From contig CM000151.3 in assembly GCA_000004695.1 (NCBI GenBank), forward strand, positions 4,736,001-4,800,000: DNA of 64,000 nucleotides, in the 5' to 3' direction. The DNA comes from Dictyostelium discoideum. Lineage: Eukaryota. Under the pieces are notes generated by a model. It searched no databases. It saw only the letters and a list, made by a program, of their open reading frames with translations, and had not been told where the DNA came from. Position numbers and translations under genes: made by a program. Positions 9,301-56,841 of the stretch are shown one piece after another (the stretch's first letter is position 1; each line of letters starts with the position of its first letter).

Positions 9301-12300
9301 TCTCAAACGTGCAAAAGAGGTCAACTTTGAATATTCCTTTGATCTCTATGGTAAACCTATGATCGCTAAAACAAATGAAACAGGTGATTATTGGATCAAT
9401 AATATTCCACCAGGTCTTTACATTGCAAAATTCTTTCCACCAAATGATACAAGATTCACCATTCAAATGAATGATAATAGTGCAAATGTTTTCGGTTCTT
9501 CATATGCAATCTATTTGTTCTATAAAGTTCCAGGTATTCATCCATACAATTTAAAAGTTGATATTGGTGCGGTGAATGCAAGTTATGTTTACTCAAAAGT
9601 TAATGCAGGTTTATTAAAAGGTTTAGTTGATATTCGTCTTTATGCAGTTAGTGGTTATGTTTACAACGATACCAATTCCAATGGTATTAGAGATCCCGGT
9701 GAAAATGGTGTTAATGGTACAATTGTAACATTATTGGATATAAATGGTAATACAATGGTTGATGCTGATTCTTATCCAATTAATTCATATACAACGGGTC
9801 CTGATGGATACTATAAATTCGATGATTTCTCATTTGGTAAATATATTATAACATTTAGCGGTGTACCAGATTTAATCTATCAATTCTATAAACCAGATGA
9901 TCAACAACATTTAAATCATTCCACACTTTCAAATATAACAATTTGGTCACCAGATAATCCAATGGTTGTAAATGCAACACTCAGTGATCATGTCAACGCT
10001 CAATATATTCTTAGAGAACAAAATAAAGGTATTATTAGAGTGATCACTTATGCAATTGGAGGTAAGGTTATACCAGATTTTAAAAACACAACATATAAGG
10101 ATAGTGGTTACGCGGGTGGTGCTGTTATAGTTCAATTATACCGTAACAATTCAATAGCAACAGATCTTCGTGGTAATCCAATACCATCGGTATTGACCAA
10201 TGTATTGACTGGTGAATATCTTTTCGATAATGTACCAATCTTAGAGGGTTATCAAGTAATGTTTTCAAGTCCACCACCAGGTTGGATTTTTGAAAAGTAT
10301 AGAATCACTCAAACCCCATTCATTCAACTTGATCTTTTACCATCATTCAATTTACCAAAATCAAATCCAAAATTAATAGATAAGAAACTTTATCCAAATA
10401 TCTTTGCAACCTATGGTGTATTGGATCAAGATACTATTATCTCACCCACTCTTTTTGGAATTGGTAAGAATACATTCATTGATGTTGAAAATAGTGGTCT
10501 CGAATCAATACCTTTAATTCCATTAGGGGGTGTAGTTGTAACACTTTACAATAGTGTATTCGAAAGAGTATTTGATGCATTTGGTAATTTGGTTAAAGAG
10601 AAAACCACGGGTGAAGATGGTGAATATTCTTTTGAAGACCTTTACTCTGGTCAATATATTGTTCATTTTGGTTTAGTTGAAGGTTATTCATTCACTCAAC
10701 AGTATGCTGGAACAGATCCTGAAATTGATTCGAATGCAAGTCCTGTAGATGGTTATTCAGAAATCATTCAATTAGATTCAATGAATAATGAATTGATTTT
10801 AATACCATTGGAATCTAGAAACAACACATTATTCTGTGATCCAACAATTGATGGTGGTTATGTTTCACTCTCACCTCAAGGTTTCATTAGTGGTATGACA
10901 TATATTGATTATAATGCTGATGGTGTATTCACACCAAATTCACGTGATAAACCATATCCAAATATTACGGTTTCAATCTACACTGGTGATGATAGTAGAT
11001 TAGTTGCAACCGCTCAAACTGATAAGAAAGGTTTTTACTCATTCTCACATTTATTCATATCCACTCAATATCAAGTTGTTTTCTCAGGTATTCCTCAAGG
11101 TTATTATACATCATTCCAAGCTGATACTGTACAATTCCCAATCGCAACAAAGACTGGTGTAAATTTAGGTATCATTAAACCATTGGAATATTGTCAAGAT
11201 GATATTAAAATAATTACAACTTGTTTTGTTCGTGGTGATTCAAATGATGATTTACCAGCTGTCGTTCAATTCCCTTATACTGCTTATTCCGATTTGAATG
11301 GTGATAATGGACAAAAAGTTGATCTAGTAACAATGAGTGAAACTAAAACAGTTTATGGTCTTGGATATGATCGTAAAGAGAATACAATCTATCTTTCGCC
11401 ATATAAAAAGCAATTTTCTAGTTTAAATTCAAAAACTTCATCAACTATCTTTAAGAAATCATTATCAACAGGTGCCCTATCAGCTTATGTAAATTTAGCA
11501 ACAGTTTTAGGTTTTGACTTTTTAGCTCCAAATGGTAAAGTTTATGGTGATTCTCAAACCTATCGTGTATTATTTGGTGATTTGGATATTATTGGTGATT
11601 ATATTTGGGTTACAAATCTTTATAGAAACATTGTAGTTAAAATACCATTACGTCAAACTCCAACTAGAGAAAACATTAAATTAGTAAACATCACTCATAA
11701 TTGTGGTCCAGATCCATTTAGAATCTTTGGTTTAGGTTATAATGGTTCCAATGTATTCGTTGGTGGTGTTTGTGAAGGTTCAGTTTCGAAGGATATAAGA
11801 AATGTAATTGGTGTAATTAAAGTGATTAGCTCTGATGAAACTTCATTCTCTGATGTTTTAACAATTCCAATGAATTATCCACGTGGTCGTTTACAAACTA
11901 GAATCATGTTTTTAAATGATATGACACCCATTTTCTCATCGGTTCAAAATTCAACATGGCAAGTTTGGAATGATACAGTGGGTAGTTTTAAACCTCAACC
12001 ACAGATAACCGATATTACATTCATTGGCGATGGTGGTAATATGGTAATATCAATGAAAGATCGTGAAGCTGATAGTCAAAGTGTTACGCCTGCAGGTGAT
12101 ATATTAATGGCATGTAAAGATTCAAATGGTGTTTATCAATTGGAGAGTGCTGGTGTTTGTGGTGGGTTAATTGGTACAAATCCAATTTCAATTGGTACAA
12201 TGATTGAACAAGGACCAGGTGGTGGTGAATTTTTCGATGACAATTTTAGTGATCGTGATTGGCAACATGATGAAACCACTTGGGGTTCTTCATATTATTT

Positions 12301-12865
12301 ACCAGGTAGTGGTGAAGTCATTGGTGGAGCATACGATCTTTTATCAACCAATGAAGCAATTGTAAAACATTGGTCAGTCTATAATGGTCGTGTTTTATAT
12401 GGTTTCATTTTAATTCATGGTGCTGGTTTAGATTATGTTTTCAATAAAGTTAATGGTTTAGGTGATATGGATGCAAATTGTAGATTACCAAATACTTATA
12501 TTGGCAATTACGTTTGGTATGATCTAAATAAAAATGGTCTTCAAGATCCAAATGAAAAAGGAATGGCAAATATTACTGTTCAATTATTTAGTGCCGCTAA
12601 TTCAACATTCATTAATTCAACTCTAACCGATTCCTCTGGTAATTACAATTTCCAAGTCATTTCAGAGTTTAAATATAGAGTTCATTTCGTTGCTCCAAAA
12701 GGTTTCACTTATTCTCCTATCGTTACTGTTAGTAGTGATCCTAATGATAAAAGAGATTTGGAAAAAATCAATAGTTTACCTGATTCAAAAGGTGACGCAT
12801 ATTTCTTTGCTAATGGTAATGGTGAAAATACTCAAGATATTGATTGTGGTTTTATAAGAATTTAA
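1491..12865 (+). CDS. Giant secreted colossin-like protein (3763 aa): signal peptide, EGF-like Cys-rich module, Pro/Thr linker, about 16 CnaB/SdrD-B-like repeats. Two exons: 1491..2081 and 2165..12865.
   Basis: The ORF-track ORF 1491..2120 ends just after a GTAAGT at 2082. The large ORF 2270..12865 'starts' at a TTG, and its open frame extends upstream to an AG at 2163-2164. Joining in phase 0 gives ...NNFLNSNS|ISKLKFKVYIPNK... The intron 2082..2164 is 83 bp and A/T-rich, and the stop is TAA at 12863-12865. The N-terminus MKGSIFLLFIFQIFKF is a signal peptide. There are Cys-rich repeats of the form C..L.CP.G..C, then a PT-rich linker (TPSPTSAPPTETPSPTDTPTDKPTIPPTPTPTPS). Motifs such as YVWYDxNxNGxxDxxExGVxGVxVxL...TDxxGxYxFxxLxPGxYxV recur about 16 times; these are Cna-B / SdrD B-like folds typical of Dictyostelium colossins. 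A unique ~750-aa domain follows, then a terminal repeat. Confidence 0.8.
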
Positions 12866-13132: not shown

Positions 13133-16100
13133 ATGGAATATAATGAAATATTATTTTGGAAAGTATTTCATAATAAATTTATATTTAATATTATAATTGA
13201 ACAAATTTCAAATGATCAATTAGAGTATGAACGTATTGAATTATATAAAATTGGTAATAGAATTAAATTTAAAGATATTCAATCATTGAAATTAATTGTA
13301 TCAAAAAAACAATTTGAATTATTAAAATGTAAATTAGAACATAATGATTTCATTTTATATAATAGAGAATCAATTGATCAATTAATACATTATGCACCAA
13401 TTGAAATAATAAAATTATTCATAGAGAAATATAAAATCAAACAACAAGATCCGCAATTAGATAAATTGAATGTAATGATTGATTTAGTACTCCATAGTAT
13501 AAAAAATAATAATTTAGAATGTTTAAGATATTTTTTAATTGAATTACAATTACCAGTTGAAAGAACTGCATTTGAATATACCTTAAAAGAGAAATCAATT
13601 GAATTCATTGATTTAATATTAAACTCGAATCAATTTAAATTGGAAGAATCTACAAGGAAATTCTGTTTAAAATTAATATCAAACAATTCAAGAAATTTCA
13701 ATGACCTAATTGAATATGTAATTTATAAAAGACCAGAATTAAATTATTTTACAACTAAATCAATAGTTGAAAATTTTAATCAACAAAAATTATCAAAATA
13801 TCCAGGTTATTTAAATACTCCACAAATTTTAGATTTTTTTTTATTTTATAAAATCAAATCAAAAGAAACAAAATTAAAATTATTAGAAATGGGTTGTGTT
13901 TCAACGGTTAAACCAGAATTTATATATTCAAATAAATTAAAACCAACCAATTGGAAAGATTATGATGAAGTTGAATTTTACCTTTTTATAATTTTAAAAC
14001 TTGGTGAACTTGAGAAATGTATAGCAAAAGATACAACTTTAGCAATTATTAGGAATGAATTTGAAGGGATTAAAGATTGTTCAAATTTAAAAACACAGGA
14101 TAAATGTAAAAAGTTACATGAATTAATAATAATTAAATTATTTCCTTATTTCTCATCACATATTTATAGAGATTATTTTGAACTTTATGATCAACCTATA
14201 CCAAATTCAGATTTTCTTTTCACTTTTCAAATTACATTTTCAACATTTAGTGTAAATGGGTTAAATTATTTATTAGATTTAAAAAAAAAAAAAAAATCAA
14301 TTCAAACCACAACAACAACAACAACAATTTATATTAATGAAATTACAAAAAAAATAGATACAAATAATGAAAAAGAAGTTTTAGAATTTTTAAAAATATA
14401 TTTTAAATCAAAACATTTACTACCAGAACTTAATAAAGTTTCAATTGATAATATGTTTTTACATGTATTAAATCATTGTTCAATTGAAACTTTAAATGAA
14501 ATTTTAAAATTAAAACCATCATCACAAGATGATATAATTAAAGGATTTTTAAGTGGTTTTTTACCAGATAATAATTTTCAATCATCAAGAGAAAAAGCAG
14601 ATGAATTTATTAAAACAATTCATATTAATAAAGATAATGATCGTTTTATTTGGTTCTCTGAGAAATTAGTAAAGAAATTATCATCAACTGCAGAAAGAAA
14701 TTTTATTAATTATAAATGTTTAAATTATTTGAATATTTCAACGAAAAATCATGTAGACTTTTTAATTGAAAATAAACCAGAAACTGTAATAATTCCATTA
14801 GTTAAAAAATATTTTGAAATTGAAAGTTTAGAATTAATAAATTATTTTGAAAAGAAATTAAATCAATCGAAACCATCAGCAAATCATTATTATTATCTTT
14901 ATTTTAAATCATTATTTAATGGTGATTTTAAAACTTTTCAAGAAATTGATGATATTAAAAATTTAAAATTGGAATTCCAATCAGCTGATTTCAAATCAAT
15001 TAAAATTAATGACCCATTGTTGATTGATAAAGTCATTGAAAATATTAATAAAAGTAATCTTAAAAGTTTAACAAGTGATTCAAAAATTAAACTTTTTAAA
15101 TTCCTATTAAAACAAAATGATGAAAAATTACAATCAAAAGTAATTGGAAGCCTACAGTTTAATTTATTCCCATTAGAATCAATGTTAGTTTTATTAGATA
15201 ATATATTGGATGTAAACATTGAAGCTTCAAATGCAATCATTAATAATTTAGTAATCAATGGTGAATTTGAATTATCATTATTGGTTTTAGCTGTAAATCA
15301 ATTTGAAAAGAGTAGATTATTTATAATTTATAAATCTTTGGATGGTAAACTAATTAAAAATGGATATAATGCAAAAGATAAATTAATACCATTTATTAAA
15401 TCGTTATTTAATAAATTGGAAGCAAATTTAAATGATGACTTTCCATCACTTTCAGATAGTCAAGAAATTCAATTCATCTTCTCTTATCTTTACAAATTAT
15501 TAATACAATGCGATGATATAACATTAGACTTAATAAATAGTGTACGTCAATTTTATTTAAGCAATGATTTAATCATTACCGATGATTTGTTTAGTTTATC
15601 TTGTTATCTTTCATTAAGATCTTATCAATTCATTAAATATTTATCTGCTATGAAAATAAGATTAAATAATGGTATTTTCTTTTTAAATGGTGTTTGGAAT
15701 TTTGAATTCGATAGTTCTGATCAAAATTATACACTAGACTTCAATTTAATGTTAAAAGAAAATAAAGTACCCATTGATAAAGATTTCTTTGATGTAATTT
15801 ATCAAACAACCAAATCTAAAGATAACAACTTTGATTTCTTTAAGAAAATTGTATTCCACAAATTAAGAAATTTAATGATTGAATTTCAAAGATTGCCTCG
15901 CCCACTTCCAATTGCTGTTGAAGTTAATTTGTTTATAGAGTTAAATAGAGCAGATCTGGTATTGGAATTAGCAGAGATAGAAGTTTCACTAAATAAACCA
16001 TTCCCAATTGAAACCGTTGGTGGTTTTATGAACATTGCTACATTGGATCAACTTAAACAATTAATTTCATTAATAGGACAAACTGAATCAAAACGTATTA

Positions 16101-16672
16101 AATATCTATTTTTAAAGAATTCCATTATTTCCCGTAAATTTGATTTCATTGATTACTTTTTGAAAGAATCAATTTTATTCATTGAAGAATTGACAAAAGG
16201 TTCATTAGATAGCAATGAATTTAAATTTTTCAAAGAGATCTTAGCTTCAAATGATATTGAATTGGTTGAATATTTATTAAAAAATTATAGAGGTCAAGAT
16301 TTTCAGACAATCGCCACCACCACTACCTCGATTACCACCACTACTACCAATCCTCAATCTGTTGTTATAACAGGATTAATTGATTTATTTAAAGACTTTC
16401 AATATTCTCAAAATTTATATCATAATAATTTTCAAGTTACAATGGATAATGGTTTAATCGATATGTTTAATCTCTTATCTCGACATTTTCTATTCGTTCC
16501 AAAAAAAGATAATATCCTTCACACAATTAGACAAGGAAGATTTAAATTGGTTGATTATTTATATAAAAATGATTATTTCGAACATCTTGGTGAAGAAACT
16601 ATAACCTCTATTAATGATTTTGTAAAAGATCAATATCCATATGATTATTTTTCTTTAAAAAAAAACAAATAA
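13133..16672 (+). CDS. Hypothetical lineage-specific protein, 1179 aa, single exon.
   Basis: An uninterrupted ATG-initiated ORF with typical Dictyostelium codon usage, a TAA stop, and internal poly-T (TTTTTTT) and poly-K/N tracts. The N-terminus (EILFWKVFHNKFIFNIIIEQI) resembles the conserved N-terminal motif shared by many Dictyostelium-specific gene families. I recognise no characterised domain. Confidence 0.65.
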   Translation: MEYNEILFWKVFHNKFIFNIIIEQISNDQLEYERIELYKIGNRIKFKDIQSLKLIVSKKQFELLKCKLEHNDFILYNRESIDQLIHYAPIEIIKLFIEKYKIKQQDPQLDKLNVMIDLVLHSIKNNNLECLRYFLIELQLPVERTAFEYTLKEKSIEFIDLILNSNQFKLEESTRKFCLKLISNNSRNFNDLIEYVIYKRPELNYFTTKSIVENFNQQKLSKYPGYLNTPQILDFFLFYKIKSKETKLKLLEMGCVSTVKPEFIYSNKLKPTNWKDYDEVEFYLFIILKLGELEKCIAKDTTLAIIRNEFEGIKDCSNLKTQDKCKKLHELIIIKLFPYFSSHIYRDYFELYDQPIPNSDFLFTFQITFSTFSVNGLNYLLDLKKKKKSIQTTTTTTTIYINEITKKIDTNNEKEVLEFLKIYFKSKHLLPELNKVSIDNMFLHVLNHCSIETLNEILKLKPSSQDDIIKGFLSGFLPDNNFQSSREKADEFIKTIHINKDNDRFIWFSEKLVKKLSSTAERNFINYKCLNYLNISTKNHVDFLIENKPETVIIPLVKKYFEIESLELINYFEKKLNQSKPSANHYYYLYFKSLFNGDFKTFQEIDDIKNLKLEFQSADFKSIKINDPLLIDKVIENINKSNLKSLTSDSKIKLFKFLLKQNDEKLQSKVIGSLQFNLFPLESMLVLLDNILDVNIEASNAIINNLVINGEFELSLLVLAVNQFEKSRLFIIYKSLDGKLIKNGYNAKDKLIPFIKSLFNKLEANLNDDFPSLSDSQEIQFIFSYLYKLLIQCDDITLDLINSVRQFYLSNDLIITDDLFSLSCYLSLRSYQFIKYLSAMKIRLNNGIFFLNGVWNFEFDSSDQNYTLDFNLMLKENKVPIDKDFFDVIYQTTKSKDNNFDFFKKIVFHKLRNLMIEFQRLPRPLPIAVEVNLFIELNRADLVLELAEIEVSLNKPFPIETVGGFMNIATLDQLKQLISLIGQTESKRIKYLFLKNSIISRKFDFIDYFLKESILFIEELTKGSLDSNEFKFFKEILASNDIELVEYLLKNYRGQDFQTIATTTTSITTTTTNPQSVVITGLIDLFKDFQYSQNLYHNNFQVTMDNGLIDMFNLLSRHFLFVPKKDNILHTIRQGRFKLVDYLYKNDYFEHLGEETITSINDFVKDQYPYDYFSLKKNK

Positions 16673-48750: not shown

Positions 48751-48788
<38 letters not shown>

Positions 48789-48887: not shown

Positions 48888-50574
48888 TTATTCTACATCA
48901 GTTAATCTAAAAACATAAACATATGGTGGATAATCTTGTGGTGCAACCATTGGAATGTTTAGTGTAATACCAGGTTTTGTTGATTCAATTGGTAATGATA
49001 CTTCAACACCTTTTTCACCTTTTAAACCTAATAAAGTTGCTTCTGTTTTATTATTACCAATTGGATCACTTAAAATTAAAACACCATCATCTGGTAATTC
49101 AAATACAAATGCATAAACATTACCATTGGTAGTATTTGTAGTATACCAGATGTTAAAAGTCATATTTTGAACTCTCCATGGTGAACTACCATAAATTGAT
49201 TCAGAATTAATTGATAACCAATTACCAATCTCTAATAAACGGTCAACCATATTATTTGGAATTGTACCTTGAGCATCTGGGCCTACATCCAATAAGAAAT
49301 TACCACCACATGCAACCGTTGTTACCAAATCAATTATTAACTCTGTAGCATTTTGATAATCAGTAGCCTGTTCATATTCATCATAACCATATGAATATCC
49401 AATGGTTGCACAATTTTCCCATTTATGTGATTGAAGTTTATATGGATTAAAATGGTCAGCACCAGTATAAAATCCACCATTCTTATCTCTACATTCACTT
49501 CCCCATCTATCATTTACAATTACTGTATCTTTAACACTACTATTTGTATATAACCAACTTAAAAATTCTGTTGATTTCCAATAATTACTTAATTGCATCC
49601 AATCACCATCTGCCCAAATTAATTCAGGTTCTAAAAAATTAAAAATTAAAAAAAAAAAAAAAAAAAAAATTATATTAATAAATATTTTTTAATTAATTAA
49701 TTAATTATATAATAAAAAACCACATACCATATGTTGTAACAATATCTTTTAATTGTTTCATTAAAATTTCATCAACATAAACTTGAGTTGTTGGGTTTTT
49801 ACCAGTTTCAGCATCTGCAAGATATAATGGATTAAACCATTCTATTTTTTTTTTTTTTTTTAAAAAAAAAAACAATATTAGTATTAAAATTAATAAATAA
49901 TAAATTTAATAAAATATTTACCAAATAAAGAATGATAAAGACCCATATGTAAACCCATGTTTTTAACAGATTTTGTTAACTCACCAACGATATCAATACC
50001 AGGACCAGTTTCAACAGAATTCCAATTCCATGATTGTTCACTATTCCAAAGGGTATAACCTTCATGATGTTTTGATGTTAAAACTACATATTTTGCACCA
50101 GATTTTTCAATTATTGATGCCCATTCATTAGCATCGAATAAACGACAATCAAATCTTGAAACGAAATCTTGATATGTAAAATTGGCTCCAAACTCTTTTT
50201 CATGATATCTTTGTGTTGCACCACCATCAGAACTTGGATTTTTTAATGTCCACCAATACCATTCTGCATATCCTCCATTTGCAAATGCTGGTACACTATA
50301 AATTCCAAAATGAATAAATATTCCAAACTTTACATCATCATACTATAATATATTATTATTATTATAAATTTTTTAAAAAAAAAAAAAAAAAATATTAATA
50401 AAAAGTAAAAAATAATAATTATAAAAATAATAATAATAATAATAATAAAAATATAATAATATTTACCCAACCTGGTAATGGTCTTGAATTAATTTGGTCC
50501 CATGTTGGTCCATACTGTTGAGATTTAATTAAATTTAATATTAACAATATAAAAAAAATGATTATCATCTTCAT
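48888..50574 (-). CDS. alfA: Alpha-L-fucosidase (glycoside hydrolase family 29), secreted, 461 aa. Four exons: 50574..50467, 50342..49922, 49841..49728 and 49630..48888.
   Basis: Exon 1 (MKMIIIFFILLILNLIKSQQYGPTWDQINSRPLPGW) ends at GTAAAT at 50466. Exon 2 (YDDVKFGIFIHFGIYSVPAF...EWYWW...KYVVLTSKHHEGYTLWNSEQSWNWNSVETGPGIDIVGEL...LYHSLF+g) ends at GTAAAT at 49921. Exon 3 (EWFNPLYLADAETGKNP...IVTTY+g) ends at GTATGT at 49727. Exon 4 (EPELIWADGDW...FLSWLYTNSSVKDTVIVNDRWG...CGGNFLLDVGPDAQG...). The protein is colinear with human FUCA1 throughout (YDPTWESLD, KFGIFIHWG, LTSKHHEGFTLW, YYSLFEWFHP, GGNLLMNIGP). The introns are 124, 80 and 97 bp. Confidence 0.85.
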
Positions 50575-50726
50575 TTTTTTTATTTTTTATTACTTTTTAT
50601 ATTATTATTACACCAATACTTGTAATCTAAAAGATGTGAAAAAACAAAAATAAAAAAATATAAAAAAAACAAAAACAAACCCCTTTTTTTTTTTATTAAT
50701 AATATTTTTATTTTTATATTTATATT

Positions 50727-50764
<38 letters not shown>

Positions 50765-51016
50765 GATCAGTTATACAAATATTTTTTTGAGAATGCCCCA
50801 ACAAAAATAAAAATAAAAATTAAAATAAAAATAAAAATAAAAATAAAAAAAACCCCCACCCCTACCCTATCTAATTAAATTTACAAAAAAAAAAAAAACA
50901 AAATCTATCTAACCAATCATGTTTTTTAAACCCTTTTTTTTACAATTTTTGGGCCAAATATTAAATTAAAAAAAAAGATGAGAAAATTGGATGATTGGGT
51001 AAAATAATATCAGATA

Positions 51017-51066
<50 letters not shown>

Positions 51067-51154
51067 GTTACCTTGAAAGAGGGAATAAAATAATTTATTT
51101 ATTGAATATTTTTGGTCCAGTAAGGAGTCAAAAGCTAAATTTTCAAATAAAACT

Positions 51155-51347
51155 AACCTCCTCTTCCCCCATAAAGAAGGAGTTTGAACGAGCAAATACG
51201 CGATCTCCTTGAAGAGCCGGACTCACGTATAACCCTCGCCCAAGGAGGAGATGTCTAACCATCTTTTAGCCCTAACCTCTTCCGGAAGAGCTCCCCACCC
51301 TCAGCCCCCGGATAATTTGATTTGATTTGATACAGTATTTTTTTTTT
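51155..51347 (+). other. GC-rich (~50 % GC) island of ~190 bp ending in a T-run, directly 5' of the repeat cluster. Candidate structured ncRNA, or the unique terminal part of the repeat element.
   Basis: AACCTCCTCTTCCCCCATAAAGAAGGAGTTTGAACGAGCAAATACGCGATCTCCTTGAAGAGCCGGACTCACGTATAACCCTCGCCCAAGGAGGAGATGTCTAACCATCTTTTAGCCCTAACCTCTTCCGGAAGAGCTCCCCACCCTCAGCCCCCGGATAATTTGATTTGATTTGATACAGTATTTTTTTTTT. It has internal complementarity (CCTCCTC/GAGGAGG; the palindromic CTTCCGGAAG). The base composition is highly atypical for Dictyostelium intergenic DNA. Confidence 0.25.
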
Positions 51348-51354
51348 CAGTAAA

Positions 51355-52346
51355 TATCCTCACCTAAAGACCACCACATGGACTCATAACCACACACCTT
51401 CACCCAAAGACCACCACATACTGACGCATACCCACCCATCCAAACTCCATAAAATTGATACCTAAAAATACTGAATTAAAAATAATTGATTATTATTCTG
51501 TTTTTGCTTTTTATTATTTTATTTTTTTCTTTTTATTTATAATTATATATAATTCTTACCCTATAATCATAAAATATTAAATAGTTACCAATTGACCACC
51601 ACACCTAATACAAATGATACATTAATTAATTAATTTTTTTTTTTACAACACATACCTTCACCCAAAAACCACCACATGTTGACGCATACCCACCCATCCA
51701 ACCCCATTTGCTTTATACCTAAAAATACTGAATTTAAAATAATTAATTATTATTTTTTTCTTTTTATTTATAATTATATAATTCTTACCCTATAATCATA
51801 AAATATTAAATAGTTACCATATTACTACCACACCTAATACAAATGATTTTTTTTTTTTTTTTTTTCACAACAATCATCATTTGTATTAGGTGTGGTAGTA
51901 AATTGGTAACTATTTAATATTTTATGATTATAGGGTAAGAATTATATAATTATAAATAAAAAGAAAAAAATAATAATTAATTATTTTAAATTCAGTATTT
52001 TTAGGTATAAAGCAAATGGGGTTGGATGGGTGGGTATGCGTCAACATGTGGTGGTTTTTGGGTGAAGGTATGTGTTGTAAAAAAAAAAATTAATTAATTA
52101 ATGTATCATTTGTATTAGGTGTGGTGGTCAATTGGTAACTATTTAATATTTTATGACTGTAGGGTAAGAATTATATATAATTATAAATAAAAAGAAAAAT
52201 ATAAAATAATAAAAAGCAAAAACAGAATAAAAACCAATTATTTTTAATTCAGTCTTTTTAGGTATCAATTATATGGGGTTTTGGTTTTTGGGTGAAGGTA
52301 TGCGTTGTAAAAAAAAAAATTAATTAATTAATGTATCATTTGTATT

Positions 52347-52393
<47 letters not shown>

Positions 52394-52626
52394 TTTTCAC
52401 CACACACACCTTCACCTAAAGATCACCACATGTTGACGAATACCCACCCATCCAACCCCATTTAATTGATACCTAAAAATACTAAATTTAAAATAATTAT
52501 TATTCTGTTTTTGCTTACTATTATTTTATTTCTTTTCTTTTTATTTATAATTATATAATTCTTACCCTATAAAACATAAAATATTTATGACTTACCTTAA
52601 AGTTCATCAATTGACCTCATACAAAT

Positions 52627-52680
<54 letters not shown>

Positions 52681-52900
52681 CACAACACATACATTCACCT
52701 AAAGACCACCACATGTTGACGAATACCCACCCATCCAACCCATATGCTTTATACCTAAAAATACTAAATTTAAAATAATTTATTATTATTCTGTTTTTTC
52801 TTTTTATTCATATGATAAAAATATTTAATCTACCACCTATAAATTAAATTAAAAATACCTACCTTGAAAGACCACTCACCGTATGACGCACACACATAAT
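51355..52900. repeat. Cluster of at least 6 copies (full and truncated, both orientations) of a 200-280 bp non-coding interspersed element with a conserved GC-rich ~50-nt 5' core. Unclassified; a possible MITE/SINE-like Dictyostelium repeat.
   Basis: Direct copies start near 51391, 51651, 52392 and 52681. Inverted copies lie at 51876-52078 and 52089-52305, with a fragment at 52313-52346. The shared core is CCTTCACC(C/T)AAAGA(C/T)CACCACAT(G/A)(T/C)TGACG(C/A)ATACCCACCCATCCAA(C/A)C, followed by ..TACCTAAAAATACT(G/A)AATT.AAAATAATT..ATTATT.CTGTTTTTGC...TTATTTATAATTATATAATTCTTACCCTATAA..ATAAAATATT.A..., and in some copies ...ACCACACCTAATACAAATGATACATTAATTAATTAATT. The copies are separated by poly-T/poly-A runs (up to ~70 T at 52345-52392 and 52628-52680). 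Confidence 0.8.
51651..52078. repeat. Near-perfect palindrome: two ~200-bp copies of the element in inverted orientation around a T-run at ~51845-51866.
   Basis: The sequence 51651-51845 equals the reverse complement of 51876-52078 except for 2-3 substitutions (e.g. ACCATATTACTACC vs ACCAATTTACTACC). Confidence 0.85.
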
Positions 52901-53143
52901 AAATATAATTATTATTATTAATTTTTTTTTTTAATTAGTTTTTTATTTTTATTTTTATTTATGTTTTTATTTTTATTCTAATTTAATATTATTTAAATAA
53001 TAAAGAAAAAGGTGAATTAAGTGTATTTCTAAAATTCTATTACTCTCTATCACAATATTTATTTGTTTGCTATAAAATAAAAATAAATAAAAATATAAAA
53101 AAAAAAAAAATTGAAACATTTTTTTTTCCAAATTTGAACACAC

Positions 53144-53175
<32 letters not shown>

Positions 53176-53516
53176 AATTTAATAAATTTATTTATTCATT
53201 ATTTTTAAAAAAAGACATATATTTTATTTGGAAACACCATTATTATATTCTTTATTGAATTCTCCAAGAAAAAAAAAAAAAAAAAAAATTAAGTACGGTA
53301 GTGAATAAATTTATTTTTTAATTTTTAAAATTTGTTTTTTCAATAATTAAATAAAGTTGAGATAATTGATCAAGATCTGTGATATGAATACAATGTTGAG
53401 ATCTATAATCTACATATTTATTTCTTTGAAGATGTTTCAAAGTGTAATAGTAAACCATCTGGAGTGATTTCGCAAGATTTAATATTTCAAAAGTAGAAGA
53501 CCATCTGAATGAGTAG

Positions 53517-53982
53517 TTATTCCTTATTTGTTTGTTTAACAAGGACAATACGAAGATTTGTTATTAAGGTGATATAATTCTTTACACTACCACCACCACC
53601 ACCATTATTGAAATAAATGATATAGAGATGGGAATTTTTGAATCTACCCTTGAAAGTTGTTTCCAAAATGTAGTGACCCTCTGATTGTTCGTGGAAATTA
53701 TATTCAACCAAAAGATTATCAGTGCCAAATAAACGTGGTGGTTCCGATAAGAATGGATTCTCCAATACAATGCATTCAAACATAATGGCGTTCTATCTAA
53801 ACCAATTAGGTCAATTAATGATACACCAATTCTTGGTAATGATAATTGTAAATCCAATTTACAATTTTCAACACAGTTTGTGATAAATATGATGATGAAT
53901 CATCCTTTGGTTGATCATAATTATTATTATTACTATTATCATAAGATAATAGTAATACACATATTGGTCCATCAACTTTCAT
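53517..53982 (-). CDS. Possible small two-exon gene (about 131 aa) of unknown function; alternatively a decaying gene fragment. Exons 53982..53863 and 53792..53517.
   Basis: An ATG at 53982 opens MKVDGPICVLLLSYDNSNNNNYDQPKDDSSSYLSQTVLKI, ending at a GTAAAT donor at 53862. The acceptor gatAG at 53794-53793 joins in phase 0 to NAIMFECIVLENPFLSEPPRLFGTDNLLVEYNFHEQSEGHYILETTFKGRFKNSHLYIIYFNNGGGGGSVKNYITLITNLRIVLVKQTNKE*. The 70-bp intron is less A/T-rich than usual. A further ORF (53318..53548) overlaps the end in another frame. No recognisable domain. Confidence 0.3.
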
Positions 53983-54149
53983 AAATGAATGCAATTTGTA
54001 TTGATGCCTATTTTAATTGGTTTAAAATTCTTACAACCCAATATTACACAATTGATGAAGAGTATGATGATTCAAATGTTGAATGATTTTCAATATATAG
54101 ATTATTATTATTATCATTATTTATATCATTATTTGAATTTGTTGTTGTT

Positions 54150-54235
54150 GATGATGATTATGATTACTATGATTGGAGTGGTAGTAATCATAATCATAAT
54201 CATCATCATAATCATCATCATCATCATCATCATCA
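54150..54235. repeat. (GAT)n/(ATC)n imperfect microsatellite.
   Basis: gatgatgattatgattac...atcataatcatcatcatcatcatcatcatc. Confidence 0.8.
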
Positions 54236-54572
54236 AATTTAATTTGAATTAATTTTTCACCATGTCTATTTGGCCAATGGAATGGTTTTGATTCACCTGG
54301 TTCAATTGATTTACAATCTTTGTACGTTGTAATTTATTTTTACCCAGTATTCTAATCGATGCTCTAAAATTATATCTCTATTATCACTATTTGATTTTAA
54401 TTGTTACTTAAATTCTGGAAATTATTATTATTTATTTGAACAATTGTTAAATTATTTCCTTGATATATAAAAATTTTGATTAAATCCAAGAATTAAAAAT
54501 AAATATAAAAAAAAGATAATTCTTGATTTATATTTTTTTTTTTTTTTTATTTCTTTTTTATTTATTTATTTA

Positions 54573-56748
54573 TTATTTTTTAATTTTAAAATTATCAAAT
54601 GGAGCTAATTCATAATTTGCAATTGATTCAACTAACCATTCAGTTTTAACCATTGGAGCAGTAACTTTTTTAACTTCATAAGATTTAGTTGATTCTTCAG
54701 CAATACAAATTGAAGCCAATTCAATTGATTTACAAATTTTACCACCTAAATTTCTAATTAATTCTTCTTTTGATTTTCTATTAATACCACTTGGATCAGC
54801 TTTACCGGCCAAAAAGAATGTTTTACCAGAGAATAAAGGTTCATCACCATTCTGTTGTGATAAACGAGCCATGTTTGGACCTGGATGTTCATCAACTTCG
54901 TGATCTTCTTCGTTGTCAATGATTTGTTGTTGTTTAAAGGATTCCTCTAACCAAGAACGTTTTAAGACCCAAACTCCTTTTGAAACACCCAAAAGGAATT
55001 TAAGTGTTCTATTCTTTGAATCATTCATAATGACATGAGTACATTCTTTAGGATCATCTGAAACGGTTAACCCAATTACTCCCATCGACTCTATAATTGA
55101 ACTACGTTCACTATCATTAAAACCTGATAATAAAACCAATTTCAAATTATCTAAATCCTCTTCCTCTACCTCTGAGAAACTTTCATCATCTGATTCTTCT
55201 TGATGTTTTTTACTACCTCCTTTTTTCTTTTTACCTTTTGATGATTTCTCATCCTCTACTTCACTATCATCACTATCATTTTCATCCTGTTTGGTTCTTT
55301 TTGGCGTTTTTTTACCAGATCTGGTTGTATCACTTTTTGGTGATTTCTCTGCTTTTTTGGTTTTCTTTTTTGGTGATTCTTTTTCTTCATCTTCTTCCTC
55401 TTTTTCTTTTGGTTTTGGTTCAACTGATTTTCTTTTTGATGGTGTTGTATTTTTAGTTGGTGTTTTCTTTTTTGATGGTGATGTTTCTTCCTCATCATCA
55501 TCTTCTACTATTTTAGAAGTTTTCTTTACTGGTGTTTTCTTTTTTGATGATTGTTCTTCCTCATCATTATCTTCTTCTTCTTCTTCTTCTTCTTCTTTTG
55601 ATGTTTTCTTTACTGGTGTTTTCTTTTTTGATGATGATAATTTTGTTTCTTCCTCTTTATCATCTTTTGATATTTTCTTTACTGGTATTTTCTTTGTTGA
55701 TGTTTTCTTTTCTTCCTCTATTTCTTTTTTATTTGGTGTTTTTTTTGAAGTTGATGATTTAATTTCTTTATTTGGTGTCACTGCTGTTGGTACTTTAAAT
55801 GAGGATTTCTTTACTTTAGTGGTTTTCTCAACCTTTTCTTCCTTTTCTTCCTCTTCATCATCTTTTAATTTTTTATTTGATTTTTTAGTGGCAGCTGGTG
55901 GTTTCTTTTTTGTTTCTTTTTCTGTTGATTTCTTTGGTGTTTCATCTTCTTCCTCTTCCTCTTCCTCTTCTTTCTTTTTAGATGATTTTGAATCTTTTTT
56001 AGGAGTTGATTTCTTCTTTGGTTTTTTCTCTTCCTCATCTTCTTCCTCCTCCTCCTCCTCCTCCTCTTCCTCTTTATCTTTTTTTGATTTTGATTTTGAT
56101 GATGGTGCTTTCTTTGGTTTAGAAGCAGTTGGTTCAGATGGAGTTGACTCTTCATTATTGTTCTCCTCTTCTTCTTCCTCTTGATCTTTTTTCTTTTTAG
56201 TACTCTTTTTATCTGGTTTTTCAATTGGTGTAACTTTCTTTGATGGAGTTATATTTTTTTTGAATTTTTTTTGATCAGCTGACTCTTTATCATCATTATC
56301 ACTTTTAGCTGCATCATCAACTTTAATTTCTTCCTTTTTAGCTCTACTTTGTTTAGTTGGTGGTGGTGGTTTAGTTTTTTTAACAGGTGTTGCTGGTTTT
56401 AAATCTTCCTCTTCTTCTTCTTCCTCCTCTTCTTCAACTTGCTCTTTTGTTTCATTACCTTTGTAAGGTACTAAATCTTTACCATCTATTTTAAAAAAGA
56501 TATAATATATAAATAAGGATAAATTTATTACTTATATAAAAAAAATTTAACTTTTTTAAAAAAAACTTACTCTTTTTTTGAGATGACTCAGATTGTGATT
56601 TTTGAGATGATTTAGACTGTGAAGATTTAGATTGTGATGATTTTGTTTGTGAAGGTGATTTATTTATTGTTTGGTCAACTAATGGAGAAATAACAAGAGC
56701 AGTTGTTGTGACATCTGATGTTATTTTAGAAGATTCTATTTCTGTTGC

Positions 56749-56779
<31 letters not shown>

Positions 56780-56841
56780 GTAGTTGTTGTTGTTGTTACT
56801 TGGATAGGTAATACCTCTGACGAAAAAAATGTATCTTCCAT
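54573..56841 (-). CDS. Tandem BRCT-domain protein with a long Lys/Glu/Ser-rich N-terminal region, 727 aa. Two exons: 56841..56571 and 56485..54573.
   Basis: Exon 1 (MEDTFFSSEVLPIQVTTTTT...SQSKSSQSKSSQKSQSESSQKK+a) ends at GTAAGT at 56570. The acceptor aaaatAG at 56487-56486 gives phase 1 ...QKKNGKDLVPYKGNETKEQVEEEE.... One long exon then runs through the K/E-rich repeats (KKTPVKKTSK...) into two C-terminal BRCT repeats (LVLLSGFNDSERSSIIESMGVIGLTV...VWVLKRSWLEESF and LFSGKTFFLAGKADPSGINRKSKEELIRNLGGKI...VTAPMVKTEWLVESIANYELAPFDNF). The intron is 85 bp. Confidence 0.75.

Follow-up and report, generated by a model that had tools for sequence, protein, structure and literature searches.

Does the near-perfect palindrome in an intergenic region of Dictyostelium discoideum chromosome 2 record a true rearrangement or a fault of assembly, and, if it is true, how did it arise and what might it do? 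We addressed this question in a stretch of 64,000 nucleotides of the reference assembly (GCA_000004695.1, contig CM000151.3, positions 4,736,001 to 4,800,000), here called the window, which is of AX4 type. Comparison of the two arms revealed pairing far beyond chance. The repeat units that form the inner arms, R2 (51645-51846) and R3 (51877-52078), were the same at 198 of 200 aligned positions (99.0%), and their two substitutions are adjacent (51820/51821 versus 51902/51903, TA versus AT). R1 and R4 were 94-95% identical, and all other pairs of units 72-93%, in line with a preliminary description of the sequence, which had noted the greater divergence of the other copies. That description placed arms of 200 bp around a T-run; the near-perfect pairing is present, but the palindrome proved about twice as long, and its centre is an asymmetric 28-nt spacer, T18+CACAACAATC, of which the T-run is one part.

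Paired outward from 51847/51876, the arms form an ungapped mirror of 406 nt with 10 mismatches, and a repeat search of the window returned inverted arms of 425 nt at 96%. Arm positions 29-281 contain no mismatch, and this perfect core of 253 nt spans the unit boundary into R1 and R4. Beyond 406 nt the right arm carries a 28-nt deletion, after which similarity fades near 51399/52296. The mismatches are unevenly spread, with two in the inner 281 nt versus eight in the outer 125 nt (P = 0.002), suggesting that the sequence nearest the centre was recently homogenised or copied anew. The predicted RNA fold of 51390-52330 reached -611 kcal/mol, compared to -164 +/- 11 for shuffled sequences (z = -40), and the DNA fold of the palindrome gave z = -64. 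Apart from low-complexity sequence, the 64-kb window has no other long inverted repeat.

The palindrome is part of an array whose units, each bounded by T-runs, are non-coding and about 215-260 bp long (Table 1). On its G-rich strand a unit begins TCATTTGTATTAGG and finishes GGGTGAAGGTATGTGTTGTG followed by an A-run of 11 to 52. Along the plus strand the order is R0 (partial), R1 and R2 in left-arm orientation, then R3 and R4 with 13 nt of a further unit in the reverse orientation, then R5 and R6 in left-arm orientation again. A 34-nt segment distinguishes the long form of the unit (R1, R4) from the short form (R2, R3). The inverted block consists of exactly two units plus 13 nt, between T-runs, and is opened and closed by the 13-mer TCATTTGTATTAG, which occurs at 51877, 52106 and 52336. 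A simple inversion of two units was rejected, as the right junction has a unit head and not a truncated tail. The tail of R4 is a 99% copy of the R3 tail plus junction (52052-52118 = 52282-52348), indicating that the right arm underwent a tandem exchange of its own. Within the spacer, CACAACA corresponds to the first 7 nt of another unit in left-arm orientation. No copies of the unit were found elsewhere in the 64-kb window.

Table 1. Features of the window discussed in the text (coordinates of the window; strand as assigned)
Feature	Position	Strand	Remarks
Open reading frame	13133-16669		Identical to XP_644252.1 (DDB_G0274219)
Spliced genes left of the cluster			alfA (DDB_G0274391, alpha-L-fucosidase) and DDB_G0274209 (MIP-family protein)
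TTAAATT, left copy of 7-nt direct duplication	50961-50967		
Apparent lineage-specific insertion, 3,440 nt	50968-54407	.	A46 run, GC block, unit array and VPS13_C pseudogene
GC-richer block	51065-51340	+	Small hairpins, e.g. CTCTTCCGGAAGAG; adjoins array
R0, partial unit	51348-51389	-	After T10 run; partial unit match
R1, long form	51390-51633	-	nhmmer match 51390-51617; then junction TACATTAATTAATTAA and T11
Left arm	51442-51847	-	Outer part of R1, junction J1, R2
Perfect core, left half	51567-51819	-	No mismatch to right half
R2, short form, inner left arm	51645-51846	-	nhmmer match 51648-51846
Spacer	51848-51875	.	T18+CACAACAATC; hairpin loop in RNA and DNA folds
Right arm	51876-52281	+	R3, junction J1, most of R4; present with same centre in L004
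R3, short form and A11 tail, inner right arm	51877-52089	+	nhmmer and alignment; same in L004
Perfect core, right half	51904-52156	+	No mismatch to left half
R4, long form	52106-52335	+	28-nt deletion after 52280; alignment
R4b, first 13 nt of further unit (TCATTTGTATTAG)	52336-52348	+	Right end of inverted block; abuts T49 run
T-run (about 49 T) and R5	52349-52628	-	Left-arm orientation again; nhmmer
T52 run and R6, diverged, internally rearranged	52629-52859	-	nhmmer and alignment
Frameshifted VPS13 C-terminal-domain pseudogene fragment	53318-53982	-	Pfam VPS13_C 37.6 bits, cut-off 21
DDB_G0274983, annotated 88-aa gene	53517-53783	-	Exact match to XP_644264.1
TTAAATT, right copy of 7-nt direct duplication	54408-54414		

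Comparison with an independent assembly (GCA_054883475.1; L004/L005), collinear with window positions 43500-64000 and with only 6 substitutions over 19 kb of flank plus differences in homopolymer length, separated the parts of the structure that recur from those that do not. R0, R1 (except for one base, 51597), R3, junction J1, the head of R4, R5 (save for the length of its T-run) and R6 are the same in L004, and the centre junction, T-run+CACAACAATCA+R3, is identical. The shared centre and the inverted R3-R4 argue that the inversion is real and that the centre is not a fold-back chimera. In contrast, the stretch 51632-51846, containing R2, has no counterpart in L004, so that the unit responsible for the 99% pair is present in one assembly only. 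R4 differs as well: the 28-nt deletion is absent from L004 and the tail is GGTCCTTTATTAATTAA+T-run, where the window instead has an R3-type tail and a 13-nt unit head. The best inverted repeat in L004 pairs R4 with R1 over 202 nt at 95%, 224 nt apart. The comparison of strains proposed in the preliminary description thus reproduced the centre and the R3-R4 head but not R2, and about 0.25 kb of the chromosome 2 reference is contradicted by the second assembly. This leaves two accounts of the near-perfect palindrome, a polymorphism that is real but unstable or a misassembly of local extent; under the first, R2 would have been either deleted between the T11 and T19 runs of the sister lineage or acquired by the AX4 lineage.

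A fold-back chimera at the centre, which had been raised as a possible artefact, was not borne out. The locus does resemble fold-back chimeric reads in its near-identical inverted repeat, its very short centre and the lack of one arm unit in L004. However, identical arms would be a sign of a chimera, and these arms carry 10 mismatches in 406 nt plus a 28-nt indel around an asymmetric spacer; symmetry reaching a read or contig end would be another, and here it stops after ~410-450 nt, with different unique sequence and genes on each side; a third would be a junction missing elsewhere, whereas the centre and the right arm were reproduced independently. The long A- and T-runs are always longer in the window than in L004 (A46 versus A20, T52 versus T36), with differences at 48751, 50729, 51019, 53144, 58802 and 59240 as well as in the T-runs of the cluster, which looks like a systematic technology effect in one assembly and not biology.

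Analysis of the surrounding region placed the array in an apparent insertion. The cluster is bordered by alfA, which lies on the minus strand with its 5' end (ATG at 50574) towards the cluster, and by DDB_G0274983; it falls within a segment of 3,440 nt flanked by the direct duplication TTAAATT. Loci in other assemblies were located from exact matches of the window's proteins. This insertion is absent from L006-L009, which carry D. discoideum or D. cf. discoideum labels and have flanks about 90% identical to the window; their empty site has a single TTAAATT, followed by T or C and TGGAAATT. In D. citrinum and D. firmibasis (L012, L013) the intergenic region is short, and no trace of units or GC block was found, bringing to six the related Dictyostelium assemblies in which the insertion is missing. 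The empty sites and the duplicated TTAAATT indicate that the palindrome lies within a lineage-specific insertion with a target-duplication-like signature, and the 3,440-nt segment looks like the insertion of a repeat element or of a duplicated segment.

Comparison with paralogous copies suggested how the present order was derived. The VPS13-like fragment has a paralogue, P0033, at locus L010 (GCA_054883475.1, CM142511.1), where a pseudogene fragment, an AT-rich stretch, a unit array and a GC block follow one another with 76-90% identity to the window. A third, partial copy, L011 (2631-3467 of CM142508.1 in the same assembly, about 3 kb from the record end), has a truncated GC block and no palindrome. 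With at least these two copies beyond the window, the array can be assigned by similarity to a low-copy dispersed repeat family of D. discoideum. R2 and R3 are 85-93% identical to the paralogous units. The full-length units of L010 and L011 all point the same way, and only R3-R4 of the window is reversed, which argues that R3-R4 is the derived, inverted piece. L010 has a palindrome of its own, with arms of 186 nt (12020-12205 and 12238-12423), 2 mismatches (99%) and a 32-nt spacer. Its centre falls in the GC block, and thus in a different place from that of the window palindrome; the window's unduplicated equivalent of the L010 spacer is flanked by a 4-nt inverted repeat, GCGA...TCGC. The different positions suggest that two of the three copies gained a near-perfect palindrome independently. 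L011 also adjoins a fragment with 84% identity to the gene that lies upstream of L010, suggesting that larger segments around the element were duplicated too, near the end of a chromosome-scale record.

The L010 palindrome could also be related to published small-RNA data. The candidate ddis_Cluster_1861 is listed with 162 nt, a loop of 102, 0 unpaired bases and -1.05475 kcal/mol/nt (PMC11014262, Supplementary Table 3); it gave 1064 + 101 reads of 21 nt and was rejected as a miRNA on manual inspection, and candidate folding in that study was done at 22 C (PMC11014262). An exactly centred segment of 162 nt from the minus strand of L010 (12141-12302) folded at 22 C with -170.87 kcal/mol, that is, -1.05475 per nt. 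The equality of this energy with the printed value is a strong, though indirect, indication that a palindrome of the L010 type is also present in the AX4 reference and would give rise to 21-nt RNAs. An apparent inverted duplication in a paralogue of the repeat family could thus be the structural explanation for ddis_Cluster_1861.

Taken with some reservation, these results favour a real structural rearrangement, without demonstrated function, produced by recent inverted duplication or arm-to-arm conversion. The preliminary description had proposed such an origin from the similarity of the arms, and it is supported by arms far closer to each other than other unit pairs are and by mismatches biased outward. 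We propose that a two-unit block of the tandem array on chromosome 2 was duplicated beside its template in reverse orientation, probably through fold-back priming or template switching while the DNA was being replicated or a break repaired. The part near the centre (R2, the junction and the head of R1 against R3, the junction and the head of R4) would later have been made almost identical over the inner ~281 nt, through gene conversion between the arms or through another, very recent round of inverted copying. This second event is assumed because R1 and R4 have diverged by ~5%, versus ~1% for R2 and R3, a difference that a single duplication leaves unexplained. Microhomology at the centre junction is 1-4 nt at most (in the TGAT/ATCA region), with the right junction at a T-run, so that the junction does not prove a fold-back mechanism. 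Once formed, a long palindrome with a short AT-rich spacer would be prone to hairpin formation and therefore unstable, as may be reflected in the sister strain, which lacks R2 and has a rearranged R4 tail. The instability that had been proposed for the locus is in this way supported indirectly, by a near-identical strain with a different structure.

Three other readings were weighed against this rearrangement. Local misassembly of the reference is unlikely, though it carries real weight: the true AX4 locus would then read as in L004, with R0-R1 followed by the inverted R3-R4 and by R5-R6, and R2 would have been made by reads of R3, J1 and the R4 head placed reversed on the mirrored R1 head and J1. 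This would account for the absence of R2 and its junction from L004 amid otherwise identical surroundings, and the adjacent TA/AT swap that alone separates R2 from the mirrored R3 could be a base-calling error, making it weak proof of two separate copies. The mirrored junctions (51605-51671 versus 52282-52348 and 52052-52118) are 99-100% alike and could mislead an assembler, and long palindromes resist both cloning and Sanger sequencing. Yet what comes after R2 is T19+CACAACAATCA, where a simple reversed read would have left the reverse complement of the sequence preceding R3. One misplaced read would also not alter the R4 tail and introduce the 28-nt deletion; the two assemblies represent different clones, as their 6 substitutions in 19 kb indicate, leaving room for true polymorphism; and L004, which shortens every long homopolymer, has systematic errors of its own. 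It would be far more surprising if the palindrome were a foldback- or MITE-type transposon with the arms as its long terminal inverted repeats. Arms built of tandem sub-repeats around a short central spacer do give it a superficial resemblance to Foldback elements, and the 3.44-kb segment around it is insertion-like, with its 7-nt target duplication. The arms themselves, however, end inside units, fading through mismatches and an indel with no sharp termini, and no direct duplication flanks them; the 64-kb window holds no unit outside the array, and the remaining two members of the family show purely tandem units or a palindrome at another position.

Hairpin-RNA loci are reported to have arisen from inverted duplications of repeats, as in maize Mu killer and the Drosophila hpRNAs, raising the question of whether the window palindrome is another. 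A read-through transcript would fold into a duplex of ~400 bp and be cut by a Dicer-like enzyme to 21-nt RNAs (endo-siRNAs or a proto-miRNA) that would act in silencing, either of the repeat family or of some other target. This reading, although compatible with the structural explanation, seems to us improbable. The locus shares with such loci, and with ddis_Cluster_1861, an inverted family copy able to form a long perfect hairpin; the fold predicted here is extremely stable, and the paralogous palindrome reproduces the energy of ddis_Cluster_1861 exactly. Every unit here is bounded by T-runs, and in D. discoideum both genes and pri-miRNAs typically have a T-run immediately before the transcription start (PMC6161686). 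Against it, the window palindrome, at -0.72 to -0.73 per nt in a centred scan, fits the energy of no D. discoideum candidate listed in the PMC11014262 table. Unlike the known loci, it is AT-rich and lies in another part of the element than the L010 palindrome, and its hairpin is a predicted one; the arms are non-coding, and no target was found. The sister strain is without one arm, with no evident consequence, and strings of the unit sequence returned nothing relevant from the searchable literature, including the supplements of the miRNA study. We offer with little confidence a broader version, in which the family, composed of a GC-rich hairpin block and T-run-delimited units, would be an undescribed element that repeatedly folds back, its copies would act as generators of hairpin RNAs, ddis_Cluster_1861 among them, and the palindrome on chromosome 2 would represent a hairpin-RNA locus, newly arisen and polymorphic between strains, at a stage between birth and decay.

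The favoured reading, a recent inverted duplication later homogenised, has parallels in better known palindromes. Palindromic gene amplification in yeast and Tetrahymena and the palindromes of the human Y chromosome have a fold-back or template-switch origin, and their arms are kept alike by conversion. The locus resembles these in its adjacent reverse-complementary arms with a short non-palindromic spacer, in having arms closest to each other, in an identity that peaks at the centre and in a structure that varies between close relatives. It differs in being small (0.4-kb arms), non-coding and made of tandem sub-units, with little microhomology at the junction and with both the mechanism and the conversion deduced from its structure. 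D. discoideum also has an extrachromosomal rDNA palindrome of 88 kb, a giant linear multicopy element with rRNA genes, so the same organism tolerates and propagates palindromic DNA; in contrast, the present locus is a single-copy chromosomal intergenic feature, for which Rfam gave no rRNA match. The palindrome would thus provide a natural, small and well-delimited case of palindrome birth, homogenisation and loss in an organism whose haploid genome and genetic tractability would allow palindrome processing to be studied. Its main interest lies in the recurrence of palindromes in one family, the difference between strains and the link to a published small-RNA cluster.

The units gave no sign of a coding role or of a known RNA function, and their open reading frames are unconserved in either orientation. 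Two coding candidates were rejected: an exon-intron-exon structure, GGTGAAG/GTATGT...TAG/GTGTGG, encoding a 23-aa peptide, in which frames and stops vary between copies, and an ATG open reading frame after each T-run, in which they are likewise not kept. Rfam, searched with gathering and with E-value cut-offs, returned nothing beyond generic sub-threshold miRNA-hairpin matches over the palindrome centre; ARAGORN identified no tRNA in the window or in L010; and both the 11-nt motif of Class I RNAs, CCTTACAGCAA, and the strict DUSE, which in such genes lies about 60 nt upstream, are absent from the cluster. A unit pattern of 19 specified bases, run against metagenome and prokaryote genome collections, returned three matches, which comprised only the 20-mer itself and are attributable to chance. 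Mobile elements were considered as well. TRE5 and TRE3 retrotransposons of D. discoideum lie next to tRNA genes and carry reverse-transcriptase open reading frames; such an element is unsupported here, with no tRNA gene in the window or L010 and no long open reading frame in 50968-53317. Nothing ties thug-S, described as a DNA transposon with an intron yielding miRNAs, to the locus.

Several further observations concern the parts of the insertion outside the palindrome. The GC block, whose 3' half is common to L010 and L011 by BLAST, contains small perfect hairpins (CTCTTCCGGAAGAG and AGATG...CATCT), a DUSE-like CCCATAA at 51168, the only such element in the cluster, and a T10 run at 51338-51347. 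Its layout would suit a small Pol III-type transcript of ~100 nt; it had no Rfam match. The sequence TACCTTGAAAGA occurs only twice in the 64-kb window (51069-51080 and 52860-52871), 1,779 bp apart, and brackets exactly the GC block and the unit array, making a target duplication of a nested insertion possible. The Pfam score of the VPS13_C fragment was obtained from its frame-corrected translation, and DDB_G0274983, which coincides with one frame of this fragment, is on this evidence a piece of a pseudogene and not a gene; the annotation of GCA_054883475.1 splices the fragment into a 168-aa model. Finally, the gene upstream of alfA encodes V-ATPase subunit H in D. citrinum and D. firmibasis and is a low-complexity gene of 718-784 aa in D. 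discoideum and D. cf. discoideum, and this synteny break (L012/L013 versus window 50575-56841) falls in the same intergenic region that took the insertion.
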